Shown in pieces: positions 1-15,713 of a stretch of 26,231 nt of DNA; position 1 is the stretch's first letter, and each line of letters opens with the position of its first letter. Position numbers and translations under genes: made by a program. Source of the stretch: a virus (Duplodnaviria > Caudoviricetes); IMG/VR virus record IMGVR_UViG_3300012933_000298, positions 1 through 26,231 of that record. One strand, written 5' to 3'. Under the pieces are notes generated by a model that saw only the letters and a program-made list of their open reading frames with translations, had not been told where the DNA came from and did no database searches.

Positions 1-412
1 ACAGTTTTGTAACAGTGATTCGGCAACCAGGCACGGGGTAAGTGTCCGAGGTCACACCAGTCCACCGCTTGCGAGCCAAGACATTCACCACCAAGGCATC
101 ATCCGCCCACAAACCAGCATGAGTCAAAGCATCCTCAACACCGCGAATAAGTTTCGATAGATCGGGAGTGCCAGCAGGATAAAGCGCCCACTTAGAGGAC
201 TTGGGCTTTTGGATATAGAAGGTGACCTCAAGCTGTAGAGGTTCAGCGATAGGCTCACCCATCTCTAAGCGCATCATCTCATGCTTGGCTGCTAGAGATA
301 CCGCAGAGCGCCATGCTGGGAGATACTTGCTCGCCTCATAAAAGCGCCCTCCTCGCCCAGGGCTTTTTGAGCCTTGAGGAGAAGGGCGGCCTTCAACAAG
401 AAATGAGATCAA
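1..412 (-). CDS. rusA: RusA-like Holliday junction resolvase (3' end at the window edge)
   Basis: Manual translation, absent from the ORF track. A TTG at 412 overlaps the SSB stop (TTGA). Protein reads ISFLVEGRPSPQGSK...PDLSKLIRGVEDALTHAGLWADDALVV...PGCRITVTKL, with the RusA PDxxKLxRxxxDAL and WxDD motifs. Confidence 0.85.
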   Translation of the reverse strand, partial: MISFLVEGRPSPQGSKSPGRGGRFYEASKYLPAWRSAVSLAAKHEMMRLEMGEPIAEPLQLEVTFYIQKPKSSKWALYPAGTPDLSKLIRGVEDALTHAGLWADDALVVNVLARKRWTGVTSDTYPVPGCRITVTKL

Positions 413-762
413 AAAGGCATCTCATCGATGATTTGGGTTGCCGACTGAACCGGCTGAGGGGTGTTGTTGCTAGGGGTGAAAACAGTGCCATTGATAGACA
501 CCTTCACCGACTGACCAGGGTTGCCATCGCGATCCAGCTTCACCGAACCATCAGCATTAGTCCACTTGTCAATGGTCGCAGATAGAGAGCCAGAGAAAGT
601 GCCTTCAGCGCCCTCGCGGAAACTCACAGGGTTCTCAAACCAAGCGGTGTAGCGGCGAGTGATAGTTGCCCCATCCTTGCCCTTAGCGAACTCGGTAACC
701 TCAACACCCTTATCCTGAAAGAACAAGCGAGTGGCAGTGCCGGTGACTTCGATGCGAGCCAT
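409..762 (-). CDS. ssb: Single-stranded DNA-binding protein
   Basis: 117 aa beta-rich OB-fold-like pattern, a Pro/Gln linker and an acidic C-terminal tail DEMPF; next to RusA. Confidence 0.75.
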   Translation of the reverse strand: MARIEVTGTATRLFFQDKGVEVTEFAKGKDGATITRRYTAWFENPVSFREGAEGTFSGSLSATIDKWTNADGSVKLDRDGNPGQSVKVSINGTVFTPSNNTPQPVQSATQIIDEMPF

Positions 763-899: not shown

Positions 900-1175
900 T
901 CATTGTGTATCACTGGAGAGATGGCTCAACTCACAGCAATCAGTATGGTTACAAGATCGCAACCCAATTAAAGGATGCCCATTAACCAGCGGATTGTCAA
1001 ATTGGTCAAACTCAGTCCCAGGCAAACAAGGCTTCCTGTGACCATAACTAATCGACTTAGCTGGGCGAGCTCGGCAAGAAACACAAAGCAAATCAGTCCG
1101 CTTGCGCTTGTCAGGGGAAACCACCCAAGCCAAACCACAGCGCACACACCTCGCCTTGTCCTCAAACCAATCCAC
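900..1175 (-). CDS. Zinc-binding protein with two CxxC motifs and a C-terminal CNHTDC..H motif resembling an HNH zinc-binding loop
   Basis: CVRC, CVSC and RSCNHTDCCELSH motifs. GTG start lies 6 nt after the extended -10 TGCTAAGGT, so probably leaderless. Confidence 0.6.
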   Translation of the reverse strand: MDWFEDKARCVRCGLAWVVSPDKRKRTDLLCVSCRARPAKSISYGHRKPCLPGTEFDQFDNPLVNGHPLIGLRSCNHTDCCELSHLSSDTQ

Positions 1176-1544
1176 AACTAAACCTTAGCAAAGTATCTTT
1201 AGCAATACCAGCCCAGCCAGAAGGCTCTCGAGGGAAGAGAATGGCTTAAGAATCAGACCACTCTCAAAAACCCAGCCATATAGGACTGTCGGGATTTGTT
1301 CATGGGTGAGGTCTTGCGATGCTCACAGTCTGCGCCAGAATAAACAGTTACAAGGCAACCAGGCAGACTCTATTGGAAGCACCGCTTATTCTCTGCTGTT
1401 CTCTCAACAGCTTTGCCCCGATCTACCGCTTCACCTATTTGCAGGGCGCGCGATATCGGCAGCCTCTAAAGCTCGATAACCGGCAGGGTGAGTGTCGGGA
1501 AGTTGACTTAGTGTCAGGCTAACAGGCGCTGCCCTCTGACAACC

Positions 1545-1553
1545 TGCTACACT
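1545..1553 (+). promoter_or_regulatory. Extended -10 promoter (TGCTACACT) for a short plus-strand antisense RNA
   Basis: TGn-TAnnnT consensus, followed about 30 nt later by a plus-strand terminator. Confidence 0.5.
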
Positions 1554-1559
1554 TAGAGA

Positions 1560-1620
1560 TGTCGGTTCTAAGTGTTTACAGGACTCCCCCAGTTGAATGG
1601 CTGGGGGATTTCTCTTTATT
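1560..1620 (+). ncRNA. Putative ~60-nt antisense RNA to the 5' end of the long RNA
   Basis: Bounded by the promoter at 1545-1553 and the hairpin at 1585-1608 with its T-rich tail. Confidence 0.4.
1585..1620 (+). terminator. Intrinsic terminator, plus strand
   Basis: TCCCCCAGTT-GAAT-GGCTGGGGGA (two G-U pairs valid on the plus strand) followed by TTTCTCTTTATT. Confidence 0.6.
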
Positions 1621-1631
1621 AAGTTGGCTCT

Positions 1632-1640
1632 ACTATAGCA
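1632..1640 (-). promoter_or_regulatory. Extended -10 promoter (TGCTATAGT) pointing into the non-coding region
   Basis: Near-consensus TGnTATAGT just downstream of the methyltransferase stop, with no ORF following for about 450 nt. Confidence 0.6.
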
Positions 1641-1648
1641 CCCTGTTT

Positions 1649-1679
1649 TTATCCACAGGATTCAACAGAGTTGTCCACA
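1649..1679 (+). promoter_or_regulatory. DnaA boxes
   Basis: TTATCCACA (1649-1657, canonical) and TTGTCCACA (1671-1679, actinobacterial consensus), same orientation and 22 bp apart, with a degenerate GATTCAACA between them. Confidence 0.65.
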
Positions 1680-2521
1680 AGCAGATCAGAACCCTCAAGC
1701 AGAATCCGCAAGGCCAGTTCAGCCTGTTGAGGAACAACACCATTACCGCAAGCCTTCAGCTGCTCATTGCGAGTCAGCCCAATCTCAGGGTCACAAATCC
1801 AGCCTTCAGGCAAGCCCATCATCCACTCAGTGAACCAGGGTGACAGCCGGTGAGCGCCCTCTTTGCCATCTGGCAGGGTTGGTGCAGGGGCAGGGCGATT
1901 CATAACCACTTCCCAGCGCCTAATGGCTGGCTCGAACTTGCCCCAGTTGGTCGAGTCTAAGACTTCAGTATTTAGAGGCTTGGTATTGCGATCGAACTGA
2001 CTAGGGCCGCCGGTGTTCTTAGCATCCTGAGTTGTTACAGTAGGCAGCAGGTCATTGACTACTGTTTCGCGGATATTGGCATAGCCGCCAGGTGTGCGCT
2101 CTTTGCTCTCGGCAATCTTCTCAGCACTTCTAGCTGGCAAGTGATCCATGGTGTTCGGGGTAGGCATCAAGCGAAGCACCTCGATGTCGAGGCTAGGGCC
2201 ATGACCATTGCCATTGCCATGCTTAGACTTCATCTTGTCAGTCCACTCATCCCACTGCTCGACAGTCTTGCCGCGCCCCATGTCATTGACTGCTGGAGTC
2301 GGCAACCCTTGTGGCAGTGATGAAAACTCGGAATCGGCTGTGAGGTGCGCCGGCATCGGAAGCGCGAACACTTGTCCATTTCGCATCATACCCGAGGTCT
2401 GCCAGGCTTCCGAGAACAGCTCCCAATGCTCGCAAAGAAGGCTCGCCATTGGCTTCTCCCATACACCACGGGCAGGATTCCAAATCTGAATGGGCTGTTG
2501 CGCTAAGTAGGCCTCGGACAT
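1649..2521 (-). CDS. C5-cytosine DNA methyltransferase, second subunit (target-recognition modules plus motifs IX and X)
   Basis: Three (L/M)PT(P/V)..D modules, then RLSPWFTEWMMGLPEGW and LKACGNGVVPQ. Start uncertain (TTG 2527 or ATG 2521); overlaps the first subunit in another frame. Confidence 0.8.
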   Translation of the reverse strand: MSEAYLAQQPIQIWNPARGVWEKPMASLLCEHWELFSEAWQTSGMMRNGQVFALPMPAHLTADSEFSSLPQGLPTPAVNDMGRGKTVEQWDEWTDKMKSKHGNGNGHGPSLDIEVLRLMPTPNTMDHLPARSAEKIAESKERTPGGYANIRETVVNDLLPTVTTQDAKNTGGPSQFDRNTKPLNTEVLDSTNWGKFEPAIRRWEVVMNRPAPAPTLPDGKEGAHRLSPWFTEWMMGLPEGWICDPEIGLTRNEQLKACGNGVVPQQAELALRILLEGSDLLVDNSVESCG

Positions 2522-2855
2522 TTTCAATAACCACCAATCTTGGATTTAGTTCTTCGATAGCTCTGGCAAACTCAATCCAAAGCCCTGATCTTGTTCCCTC
2601 TTTCAGACCTGCTCGCTTACCAGCAAGGCTCAAGTCTTGGCAGGGGAAGCCACCTGTGAGGATGTCTACTGATTCGACTTGGGTGAAGTCCACCAGACTG
2701 ACATCGCGATAATTTGGAACACCTGGAAAGTGCTTCTCAAGAATCTTGGAGGGCGCGGCATCCCATTCGCAATGCCAGACCACCTCTGCGCCAGTGACAT
2801 TGGCAACCGCATTGTCCAGACCGCCATAGCCACTGAAGAGTGAACCGATTTTCAT
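2283..2855 (-). CDS. C5-cytosine DNA methyltransferase, catalytic subunit (motifs I-VIII)
   Basis: SLFSGYGG (motif I), GGFPCQDLS (IV), IENV (VI), PHSRFRVF (VIII). ATG 2855 has SD GAAAGGGAAAA. Confidence 0.92.
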   Translation of the reverse strand: MKIGSLFSGYGGLDNAVANVTGAEVVWHCEWDAAPSKILEKHFPGVPNYRDVSLVDFTQVESVDILTGGFPCQDLSLAGKRAGLKEGTRSGLWIEFARAIEELNPRLVVIENVRGLLSATAHSDLESCPWCMGEANGEPSLRALGAVLGSLADLGYDAKWTSVRASDAGAPHSRFRVFITATRVADSSSQ

Positions 2856-2880
2856 TGTCTTTTCCCTTTCGACAAGAACT

Positions 2881-2935
2881 AATGTAGCACAGTTACACAG
2901 CAAGATTGACAGAATGAATAAAGAAATGCTAAATT
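2881..2935. promoter_or_regulatory. Divergent promoters in an AT-rich spacer
   Basis: Minus strand: TGCTACATT (2889-2881) before the methyltransferase. Plus strand: TTGACA (2906-2911), 18 nt, then TAAATT (2930-2935) with an extended TG. Confidence 0.6.
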
Positions 2936-2963
2936 AGACTTAGGAAATCGAAATTAGCCTAAT

Positions 2964-3000
2964 AAACACCCCCTGAAACCTAAGTAAGGGGGTTTTTATT
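2964..3000. terminator. Probably bidirectional intrinsic terminator after the HNH gene
   Basis: ACCCCCT (2968-2974) / AGGGGGT (2987-2993) stem, 12-nt loop, T-rich on both sides. Confidence 0.7.
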
Positions 3001-7004: not shown

Positions 7005-8390
7005 CTATCTCCTTAGTAAAGCAACCGAAGCCATCTGACCGACAATGACTGTTCCAACAACAACCCTTTGACCGCGCTCTCGCTCGGCAGGGCTAATGTC
7101 CGCACCAATATTTCCGACAGCATTGAAGGTGTCCATGACCGCGCCAGCGACATTGCCCAGCAAAGGGATGGCGGCTAGTTCGGCTGGCAGTTCAGGGTCA
7201 TCGGCTTCAGCAACAACTGCTAGAGCTTCGAGTGCTTGCTCATAGGCTGGTGATCCTTGTTCGGCGGTTGCTAGAACAGCAAAGGCTTCTTGAGTGATTA
7301 CCGCTTGTTGAACTGGGCTGATGGTTTCAGGGTCAACAGTTTTGAGGTCTAGTTTTATTTCTGGCTGTGGCGGTTTAGGGGCTTCGACTGGTGGTTCAGG
7401 TGCGACTGTCGGCTTTGGCTCTGGTGTGGCTTCAGGGGTCGGCTGAGGGGCTGGTGGAGTAGGTTCTGGGGTTGGCGGTGCTGGCTCAGGAGTAGGCTCT
7501 GGCTCGGGTGCAGGTTCAGGCTCAGGCTCAGGCAATGGGATAGGCTGGGGTTGCGGTGCAGGTTCAACAACAGGAGGGGCAACAACAGGTGGCACAACAG
7601 GAATTGGGGCGGGCTCTGGCTGACTCACTGGCGGCTGGACTGGGGCTTCTGGCTCTGTGCTTGGTGCTGGGGATGGTGTGGTGGACTCCACTGGTGATGG
7701 CTCTGGGCTTTGCGGTGTTTCGGTTGGGGCTGGCTGTCCTGTTCCTGAAACTAGATTCACTCTCAAAACCTTGACAACACCGCCACAAGGATCACCGAAC
7801 ACCCCATTGTCGGCAGACACCTCAAAGGTGTTAGACCCGAGATAGGTTGCCAGAACAGCGCTGACATCAGCGCCACAAGTCGCATCATTCGGTGCGCCAT
7901 ACCAGCCAGTAACAGCAGTAAAGACTTCCCCTGCTGGGGCAGTAGCCGAAAAGAGCTGACCTTCCCAAGTGCCAGTTTCAACCACCGGCTCAGTCACAAT
8001 CGGGGCAGAAAAGATTGGGCCATACCAGCCACCCCAGAAGCCCTCATCCTTGCCAGTAGCCTGAATAAGAACCTCGCCTGAAACAACAGTCTGGATAGTG
8101 ACAACCTCAATGCTGTTGCCATCCCAGCGCTCGCCATTGATAGTCAGCGACCAGGTGTCAGGGATGGGGTTGCAAGTGCCGATGCAGTTAGCAATGGTGT
8201 TGTTGACTGTAATGGTCAGGGTTGAGTTATCTGCGACCTGTAAGACTTGAGAAGCTGTGCCACCGCGCCAGTCAAACTGCACCGAACCATTGTTCAGATT
8301 GCCCGAAGTTGTATCCCAAGCATAAGCCGGTTGCGCCAAGAATAAAGGGGCGAAGGCTAGAACAAGCGCAAGACCAAACCGCGCTCGCAT
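7005..8390 (-). CDS. Secreted or surface protein with a SUEL-type (galactose/rhamnose-binding) lectin-like domain and a Pro/Glu-rich stalk
   Basis: Signal peptide ending AYA, ADNGVFGDPCGGVVKVLRV motif, long PEP/PTP linker and hydrophobic C-terminus ending RR. Confidence 0.65.
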   Translation of the reverse strand: MRARFGLALVLAFAPLFLAQPAYAWDTTSGNLNNGSVQFDWRGGTASQVLQVADNSTLTITVNNTIANCIGTCNPIPDTWSLTINGERWDGNSIEVVTIQTVVSGEVLIQATGKDEGFWGGWYGPIFSAPIVTEPVVETGTWEGQLFSATAPAGEVFTAVTGWYGAPNDATCGADVSAVLATYLGSNTFEVSADNGVFGDPCGGVVKVLRVNLVSGTGQPAPTETPQSPEPSPVESTTPSPAPSTEPEAPVQPPVSQPEPAPIPVVPPVVAPPVVEPAPQPQPIPLPEPEPEPAPEPEPTPEPAPPTPEPTPPAPQPTPEATPEPKPTVAPEPPVEAPKPPQPEIKLDLKTVDPETISPVQQAVITQEAFAVLATAEQGSPAYEQALEALAVVAEADDPELPAELAAIPLLGNVAGAVMDTFNAVGNIGADISPAERERGQRVVVGTVIVGQMASVALLRR

Positions 8391-15191: not shown

Positions 15192-15713
15192 ATGCAGACC
15201 ATTTACACCACCGACATCCTAGACAAGCCAGCCATTCACAGAAGCGGCGAGGATTTTGTTATCTATCAGCCGACCGCCCCATTCCTAGACTCGCATGGTC
15301 TAGTGGTTGCCCAGCTAATTCAATACACAGATGGCGAACTAGAAACCACCTCATACTATTCGCGAGGCTGGGCTTACTGGAACTTCTTAGACATCGAGGG
15401 TGACAACTTCGAGATTGCTAATGAAGCAATGGACACAGAGCGCTACCTATTCGGTGACATCGACATGACCATCTCATTTGCCAGTGAAACAGTCGAGCAG
15501 ATTGCCACCGACACAATCCCACACAGCAACCCATACTGGCAGATGCTAGTCCTTCGCCTCGCCTATGGTCAGATTACCAATGGCAAAGAGTTCAATGACA
15601 TCCTTGCCAACTCAAGCCACACCCCCGAGCAGATTCAGCGGATGCTAGACCTAGCCGCCGGTGCGATCCTGCAAGGAACAGAGTTGCGACTCACAGGACT
15701 CAAAACAATCTAG
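15192..15713 (+). CDS. Acidic hypothetical protein (moron)
   Basis: 173 aa with its own promoter, SD AAAGGGAG and terminator; opposite strand to the tail operon. Confidence 0.8.
   Translation: MQTIYTTDILDKPAIHRSGEDFVIYQPTAPFLDSHGLVVAQLIQYTDGELETTSYYSRGWAYWNFLDIEGDNFEIANEAMDTERYLFGDIDMTISFASETVEQIATDTIPHSNPYWQMLVLRLAYGQITNGKEFNDILANSSHTPEQIQRMLDLAAGAILQGTELRLTGLKTI

Follow-up and report, generated by a model that had tools for sequence, protein, structure and literature searches.

Replication of ColE1 plasmids is initiator-free and proceeds through a long folded transcript, RNA II. According to the accessible text of two accounts, this RNA forms a lasting hybrid, aided by a stretch of rG and a stretch of dC in the template, and RNase H and Pol I then make the primer (PMC4412123, PMC5043065). 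Protein-free replication is also described in mycobacteriophages. As far as the available part of the report goes, regions of about 600 bp that lie upstream of parA and are transcribed opposite to it suffice for this process (Wetzel et al. 2020, PMC7157519). That part of the report contains no structure or mechanism for these non-RepA origins, and they are lacking from Rfam as well. A literature search, with most subscription journals outside its scope, found no description of their structure or of the RNA element presented here.

Other structured RNAs offer more distant comparisons. GOLLD and ROOL are multi-stem pseudoknotted phage RNAs, as is the element, but they are larger, and the element is set apart by its strict tie to genomes that lack an initiator. 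The ARRPOF, GEBRO and PAGEV motifs of plasmids, 223-349 nt in length, are likewise tied to replication regions, and the region that contains ARRPOF permits replication independent of rep (Weinberg 2017, PMC5737381, in its accessible text). They come from other phyla and from plasmids rather than phages. Viral RNA candidates in the available material of Fremin 2023 are at most 151 nt long. Five motifs of the element are absent from six supplementary files of that study, and fragments of the element may still be catalogued there.

The element studied here is non-coding and has a conserved fold with pseudoknots; in small freshwater phages of actinobacteria it stands where close relatives have the gene cassette for a replication initiator. 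It was examined in a window of 26,231 nt, the whole stretch of DNA analysed, from a virus record that is 84% complete. PHROGs matches identify genes for terminase, portal, HK97-type capsid, WhiB, RecE, Erf, HNH and a split C5 methyltransferase. The nearest cultured terminase, at 50% identity, is that of Pontimonas phage phiPsal1, whose host family is Microbacteriaceae, and the window phage therefore presumably has an actinobacterial host. Against Rfam 15, which includes GOLLD, ROOL, ARRPOF, GEBRO, T-box, introns and riboswitches, the window gives no match at E<=1, and ARAGORN finds no tRNA or tmRNA. The earlier note likewise did not recognise the element as a tRNA, tmRNA, group I/II intron or riboswitch. 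Eight further loci give one sub-threshold Rfam match, which lies outside the core of the element.

The element is placed between the methyltransferase and a 91-aa Cys-rich ORF, which is followed by SSB-like and RusA-like genes (Table 1). PHROGs and Pfam gave no match to the Cys-rich ORF; its top score in an atlas search, 0.87, is a lead only. The gene at 409-762, which we take to encode an SSB, has no match in PHROGs, and Pfam RusA is matched by one representative of the RusA cluster. Gene maps show that the methyltransferase is optional cargo missing from many members. Its two ORFs are in different frames, and the identical split occurs in many related phages. Beyond them, at 2906-3000, lies an A+T-rich gap with a plus-strand sigma-70-like promoter (10/12) and an inverted repeat of 14 nt (2961-2974/2987-3000), possibly a terminator that acts in both directions. 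Elsewhere in the window, a 173-aa ORF (15192-15713, plus strand) sits on the opposite strand within the tail region and has no PHROGs or Pfam match, and a 461-aa protein with a long Pro/Glu-rich stretch (7005-8390, minus strand) has no PHROGs match. Among other element-bearing phages, one carries a SAM synthetase (G017; L215 1-651, L216 18895-19515) and another a Cpn10 and a Mom-family gene (G013; L210 4822-5127 and 2505-3149).

Table 1. Features of the element and its surroundings, in window coordinates, with the parts of the element listed 5' to 3' on the minus strand
Feature	Position	Strand	Details and basis
Split C5 DNA methyltransferase, two overlapping ORFs	1649..2903	-	PHROGs 363 and 1008; directly upstream of element
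Extended -10 promoter-like motif (TGnTAnnnT)	1632..1640	-	Sequence; just upstream, predicted RNA start near 1625
Variable leader, two strong hairpins (1608-1585, 1575-1549)	1543..1612	-	Outside conserved core
P1 hairpin, 1x6 internal loop (A opposite GUUAGN)	1512..1541	-	Two-sided changes in 8/10 pairs; 96-98% paired
Single-stranded linker AAGUCAAC	1502..1509	-	Conserved columns, alignment A7
P2, 7-nt YUNR loop (1492-1486)	1480..1498	-	Two-sided changes in 6/6 pairs
P3, conserved 7-nt loop (G/U)UYAGAG (1470-1464)	1454..1478	-	P2-P3 is the module common to Alma, RedRock and Gladiator origins
P4	1415..1447	-	Loop segment 1435-1431 pairs with P2 loop (kissing pseudoknot)
P5, GAGA-rich 7-nt loop	1395..1411	-	Covariation alignment
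H-type pseudoknot	1327..1392	-	P8 (1392-1382/1347-1337), P7 (1380-1375/1360-1355), P6 (P7 loop 1369-1362/1336-1327)
P9, GNRA tetraloop cap (1317-1314)	1306..1326	-	Two-sided changes in 6/6 stem pairs
Direct repeat copy 1 (CCC-N6-CCU-N3-block C)	1271..1293	-	Sequence comparison
P11, hairpin between repeat copies, 3' strand starts UA(A/G)GCC	1237..1265	-	Self/cross z -8.1, 16/16
Direct repeat copy 2 (CCC-N7-CCU-N2-block C)	1212..1234	-	Predicted site of RNA invasion into DNA
Extended -10 promoter-like motif	1182..1190	-	6 nt before downstream ORF start
91-aa Cys-rich ORF	900..1175	-	Downstream marker of replication slot; occurs in element phages and initiator phages
SSB-like gene	409..762	-	ORF clusters; then RusA-like gene running off window start

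The replication slot that the element fills is that of actinobacterial phages of 30-38 kb, and searches with the neighbouring genes recovered 78 loci. The element is present in 31 of these and a protein initiator in 35, two of which are weak matches (E about 1e-6). DnaB alone is found in three, which are cut contigs. Neither is found in nine, mostly contigs ending before the slot or distant contexts, and no locus has both. When eight loci judged to be the same contigs are dropped, 29 element loci, 33 initiator loci and 8 others are left. Fisher tests on this table give p of about 1e-12, but the value is inflated by kinship and is not relied on. Initiators were verified by PHROGs 270, 9474, 2447 and 8540, and DnaB by PHROG 19. 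Three protein cassettes occupy the slot: an HTH initiator alone, an initiator with a small ORF, and an initiator with DnaB. The small ORF, presumably a G39P-like loader, lacks PHROGs and Pfam matches and resembles the annotated 'replisome organizer' of phiPsal1 (E 1e-9). This cultured relative has 'RepO' and its 'replisome organizer' after the HNH gene, and no match to the CM of the element. When the CM was run against 46 sources from element-free loci, nothing fell below E 0.6, whereas two degenerate positive controls were found at E 1e-14.

The same division is seen across whole records. None of 21 element-bearing records, nine of them at least 90% complete, matches PHROG 270, PHROG 19 or the initiator profile. 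An initiator is matched in seven of eight element-free records, and the eighth has a divergent initiator that is seen in its gene map. DnaB is matched in two of these eight. For seven element and two control genomes, 81 of 221 ORF-cluster representatives were compared to Pfam, and none proved to be a polymerase, primase, helicase, integrase or ParA/B. An unknown initiator could be present among the unannotated small ORFs.

Element and initiator have replaced one another repeatedly. The RusA tree requires six state changes, five of them forced by well-supported branches; the Erf tree requires five (four forced), and a quick RecE tree three (two forced). Between the element locus L067 and the initiator locus L069, identity is 94% across 1833 nt on the upstream side and 98% across 336 nt on the downstream side, and a 131-nt leader is common to L066 and L069. 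Near-identical genomes differ in a cassette that runs from the shared leader to the downstream promoter. Movement of this cassette between genomes, and the HNH gene found upstream in most members, would also fit a mobile or partner RNA of that nuclease (omega/HEARO-like) that inserts into the slot. Yet initiator phages have the same HNH gene, methyltransferases or other cargo often intervene, and the element occurs once per genome and has no Rfam match. Loss of the initiator would moreover be lethal unless the element replaces it, so that such an RNA is hardly probable at all.

The element is probably a cis-acting RNA replication origin, likely ColE1-like in using an R-loop primer, that would dispense with a phage-made initiator protein. 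Four points are established, namely the conserved fold, the 3' repeat, the exclusion of element and initiator in one slot, and the lack of a detectable initiator or helicase; the steps of the mechanism itself are predictions. The earlier note had raised the possibility of a primer. The strict swap with protein initiators favours that suggestion, as do short matches to the mapped mycobacteriophage RNA origins (see below).

The conserved core of the element runs from position 1541 to about 1205 on the minus strand, or about 340 nt. The limits first proposed, 1190-1625, are about 80 nt too long on the 5' side, where positions 1625-1545 form a variable leader. In other members this leader contains other hairpins, a short ORF or nothing. 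In one subgroup the shared leader is separated from the element by a conserved ORF of about 42 aa (L001 2493-2621; similarly in L003 and L071), and in the initiator phages L035 and L069 an unrelated short ORF follows the same leader. Two members (L066 4665-4973, L068 2009-2317) lack a recognisable P1 and linker, yet no initiator is present in the fetched locus; they are natural truncation variants.

Members were found by neighbour-gene searches combined with a profile of the core. One pattern scan of IMG/VR picked out 96 loci, of which four were new members and the rest either known ones or chance matches; two further scans added none. A single GTDB scan gave one match, L226, a contig of 31.7 kb that carries the element and the gene set of these phages and is filed in a Saccharibacteria bin. 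This is probably a mis-binned phage, and Saccharibacteria are probably not its host. Every member found is a phage of the same small freshwater kind, and these phages fall into two groups with differing structural modules. Sequence divergence is considerable: pairwise identity among 23 less-redundant members averages 52%, with a minimum of 38%. Searches with blastn found no match in 72,556 plasmids beyond two E=4 fragments, and nothing useful in 50,697 phages.

Two comparisons of homologs support the fold. The first is a MAFFT alignment of 27 members that was not fitted to any structure. In a model of 62 pairs, 54 show two-sided changes, and 86% of cells are paired compared to 35-43% in slid controls. 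P8 and the kissing contact are excluded from this count because the alignment shifts there. RNAalifold recovers only 26 pairs (model R1) and misses the 3' helices. The second comparison, a self-versus-cross pairing test that tolerates alignment errors, uses 16 members under 75% identity. It supports P1-P9, P11 and the P2-P4 kissing contact, while six control region pairs are not significant. A P10 mini-hairpin at repeat copy 1 gave no covariation signal in this test and was dropped.

In the self-versus-cross test, z within the H-type pseudoknot is -9.7 for P8, -7.7 for P7 and -4.8 for P6, and seven of eight P6 pairs show two-sided changes. The earlier stem 1327-1333/1363-1369 is present and proves to be the crossing stem of this pseudoknot. 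The pairing 1431-1435/1487-1491, read earlier as an enclosing helix, is instead the loop-loop contact between P2 and P4. Its energy is -3.9 kcal/mol within members and -2.6 across them (permutation p 0.00075), and it is better than the row mean in 11 of 16. C-GNRA-G caps P9 in 18 of 27 members, and the P5 loop is presumably T-loop-like. At the base of P2, two columns of alignment A7 (56 and 80; window ~1499 and ~1479) covary strongly in a non-canonical manner, with G-A in 13 and C-U in 12 of 27 members.

A protein-coding reading of the element was rejected. No conserved coding frame was found, no member has an open frame across the whole core on either strand, and 268 of 306 indels are not multiples of three and so break the frame. 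The earlier proposal of a new large phage ncRNA class is supported by homolog covariation, by a bias toward G-U pairs, by loops of the GNRA and T-loop-like kinds and by the absence of any Rfam match. We conclude that the element is a new structured RNA class, while an RNA-primed origin is itself a known kind of system.

Folding energy is a poor guide to this structure. On the minus strand the whole region is more stable than shuffled sequences (z -3.02; no shuffle out of 100 reached its stability), unlike on the plus strand (z -0.66), but z is 0.0 when the conserved core is taken by itself. With windows of 150 nt, the signal falls at 1501-1700 (minus-strand z -3.4 and -3.3), whereas windows starting at 1151-1451 range from -1.4 to +0.6. 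The signal is thus confined to the hairpins at 1608-1543, and the description of some 430 nt as highly structured is true by energy of those two 5' hairpins only, outside the core; for the rest it is homolog covariation that shows the structure to be real. Because the core does no better than shuffles, energy was dropped as the main evidence.

All nine stems listed in the earlier note can be found at their coordinates. Only one of them, 1237-1245/1257-1265, needs G-U pairs on the minus strand, where it has two, against two mismatches on the plus strand. The other eight are fully Watson-Crick and therefore uninformative on strand, although several had been taken as evidence for RNA. The minus-strand polarity itself is confirmed by homologs. 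Over 40 pairs, G-U occupies 105 cells and A-C 32, and folding favours the sense strand over the antisense in 14 of 16 non-redundant members, the other two being ties.

Covariation cannot tell an RNA from single-stranded DNA of the same strand, a point also made for plasmid motifs in the accessible text of PMC5737381. The slot evidence is equally compatible with an origin that acts as DNA, in which transcription or supercoiling frees the non-template strand, and this strand, once folded, attracts host primase or restart proteins of the PriA type. The repeats would then be tandem protein sites, and their joint changes (see below) fit this role. What makes the single-stranded DNA origin unlikely is the presence of GNRA (18/27) and YUNR loops, a kissing contact and an H-type pseudoknot, which we take to be RNA-type features. 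The related mycobacteriophage regions are also transcribed on the same strand, according to the available part of PMC7157519.

The 3' end of the element carries an interrupted direct repeat that flanks P11. The repeat is short and not strongly G-rich. Its sequence varies between phages, yet the two copies match within each phage: among 16 non-redundant members the best 7-mer identity between copies is 6.4 within a phage and 5.5 across phages, a difference equalled in none of 20000 permutations, whereas in four control regions the difference is only 0.1-0.24. Within the RNA, no complement of the repeat was found at a constant place, and an internal RNA partner was rejected for this reason. The repeat keeps identity rather than complementarity, as pairing between RNA and template predicts. 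The repeat, whose copies change together, supplies an RNA segment able to pair with the downstream template strand; the pairing itself is a predicted step.

An RNA primer that makes use of this repeat might operate as follows. Host RNA polymerase would transcribe the element from the upstream extended -10 promoter or by read-through. The RNA would fold as it is made, with the P2-P4 kissing contact and the pseudoknot setting a competent shape. Copy 1 of the RNA, which equals copy 2 of the DNA, would then pair with the template at copy 2 behind the polymerase, with P11 looped out. This pairing could plausibly, if not quite probably, seed a lasting R-loop, which is the part played by the rG/dC stretches in ColE1. 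The hybrid would become a primer near 1210-1190 through the action of host RNase H and Pol I, and the displaced strand would load host helicase and primase with the help of phage SSB. Finally, phage RecE/Erf, RusA and SSB would carry recombination-driven or rolling-circle amplification. We regard the repeat-driven R-loop step as possible, with the balance tilted slightly against it.

The likeness to ColE1 thus lies in the predicted initiator-free replication through a long folded RNA, and in an RNA that repeats, in its upstream part, a DNA site lying further downstream and could thereby pair with the template. The element differs in that its repeat is a variable mixed sequence rather than a G tract, and host phylum and replicon type differ as well. 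No equivalent of RNA I or Rom was identified for the element; the one feature noted in this respect is the YUNR loop in P2.

The same repeat could serve an RNA that acts in trans in place of the initiator, binding a host factor such as DnaA or a helicase and being guided to a DNA site that copy 1 matches. Copy 1 does equal a DNA site, the ornate tertiary fold exceeds what a primer needs, and the element replaces both initiator and loader or helicase. The only matching site seen, however, is 59 nt downstream and within the element, which fits action in cis, and gene maps reveal no partner protein exclusive to element phages. A trans-acting RNA is therefore very unlikely.

Extended -10 motifs occur on both sides of the element. 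The upstream motif is present within 290 nt in nine of 27 members, against 17% expected, and the downstream motif within 70 nt in 19 of 27, against 4.5% expected. From this pattern the downstream operon is predicted to be leaderless and to have its own promoter. Two metatranscriptome runs of one study yield contigs over 1233-1523 at a depth of 4-5, similar to pieces of SSB and recE, which may be DNA; in runs X3 and X4 other relatives are present.

The position of the element, directly upstream of the Cys-ORF/SSB/RusA operon and on the same strand in most members, is also that expected of a cis-regulatory leader of the riboswitch or attenuator type, and a terminator-like hairpin with a U run lies at 1288-1273. 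Such a leader is highly improbable, given that 19 of 27 members have a separate extended -10 motif for the downstream ORF, that a different gene comes next in five loci (L099, L101, L103, L105 and L130), and that initiator phages express the same operon without the element. A leader would also leave the missing initiator unexplained.

Other origin signals were sought near the element. Two perfect DnaA boxes (1649-1657 and 1671-1679, plus strand) lie within the 3' end of the methyltransferase ORF, one of them over the -35 of the predicted upstream promoter. A DnaA-box origin was rejected, as such boxes adjoin the element in one of 27 members, that of the window, and are not conserved. Cumulative GC skew shows no turn at the element in seven complete or near-complete genomes.

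The RNA-origin reading draws further support from the mapped mycobacteriophage origins. Of 12 mycobacteriophage and Gordonia loci searched with a CM built from freshwater members only, 11, among them Alma, RedRock and Gladiator, are matched at one and the same P2-P3 site on the anti-parA strand (best E 0.008). In all 11, P2 has a 7-nt YUNR loop and P3 a GUYAGA loop, at the same 22-nt loop spacing. A P2+P3 descriptor matches these loci, compared to two matches in 934 kb of background, and misses seven of 27 freshwater members. Gladiator scores 9.3 bits on a P2-P3 profile, with one higher score in 1.37 Mb. The twelfth locus, Et2Brutus, scores 30.7 on a four-motif 3' chain, with one higher score in 2.7 million real positions and one in 1.5 Mb of GC-matched random sequence. 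That family, too, carries a short block twice, once on either side of its last hairpin, and by eye both copies are changed in Daredevil and in L244/L260.

These module matches are short, each being about 1 in 1000 by chance, and the descriptor and motif chain were written after the CM matches were seen. The 11 loci form one family and are therefore one event. Whole-element CM and HMM searches of the mycobacteriophage origins are not significant (E 0.008-0.9), and reciprocal nhmmer gives E of at least 3.8, with two background matches ranked higher. The 3' chain is not matched by Gladiator-type origins, nor P2-P3 by Et2Brutus, and the middle domain has a counterpart in neither. Something resembling P1 in the upstream part of the mycobacteriophage origins lacked profile support and was dropped. 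Since the tests are partly post hoc and concern one family each, and full-length scores are not significant, we claim shared modules and a shared way of working rather than membership.

The element and the mycobacteriophage non-RepA origins (Alma, RedRock, Gladiator, LadyBird and Et2Brutus, as described in the available part of the source) are both several-hundred-nucleotide non-coding regions that alternate with a protein initiator among related actinobacteriophages. On the transcribed strand, the element shares the P2-P3 module with the Alma, RedRock and Gladiator type and resembles Et2Brutus in its 3' module, and both kinds of region have a short block repeated around the last hairpin. Both replicons lack a Rep or initiator gene (0/21 element records), and neither region has a required or conserved ORF. 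They differ in that the P1, linker and middle pseudoknot domain of the element are unmatched in mycobacteriophage origins. Those origins also lie beside parABS and maintain plasmid-prophages, whereas element phages have no ParA/B in gene maps or scanned clusters. RNAs of the mycobacteriophage type are also found without parABS beside them, in gaps that lie upstream of terminase (L237 3011-3370, from Gordonia phage Daredevil; L244; L260), and that of Daredevil follows an HNH gene. The element occupies the HNH-SSB-RusA replication slot, and no ParA/B, integrase, polymerase, primase or helicase was found with it; it is therefore likely to be the main origin.

A broader proposal is offered more tentatively, and the probabilities lean against it. 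The element and the mycobacteriophage non-RepA origins may constitute one unrecognised actinobacteriophage superfamily of primer RNAs, built of swappable modules, whose RNA carries its own targeting sequence (copy 1) to invade DNA 59 nt downstream and serves as the only origin in the freshwater phages. If this is true, whole phage lineages would replicate without a phage-encoded initiator, helicase, primase or polymerase.

The findings suggest a likely job for a new ornate phage RNA, which is rare, as most large phage RNAs have no assigned function. They describe an RNA cassette that is interchangeable in nature with several protein initiator cassettes, and for the protein-free origins of mycobacteriophages they provide a structural model, the first of its kind, and a mechanism open to test. 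Plasmids driven by those origins already replicate in M. smegmatis, so that mutations in the predicted hairpins, kissing loop and repeat could be made there without delay. A protein-free origin of 350-450 nt could also become a vector for freshwater hosts of the Microbacteriaceae type.
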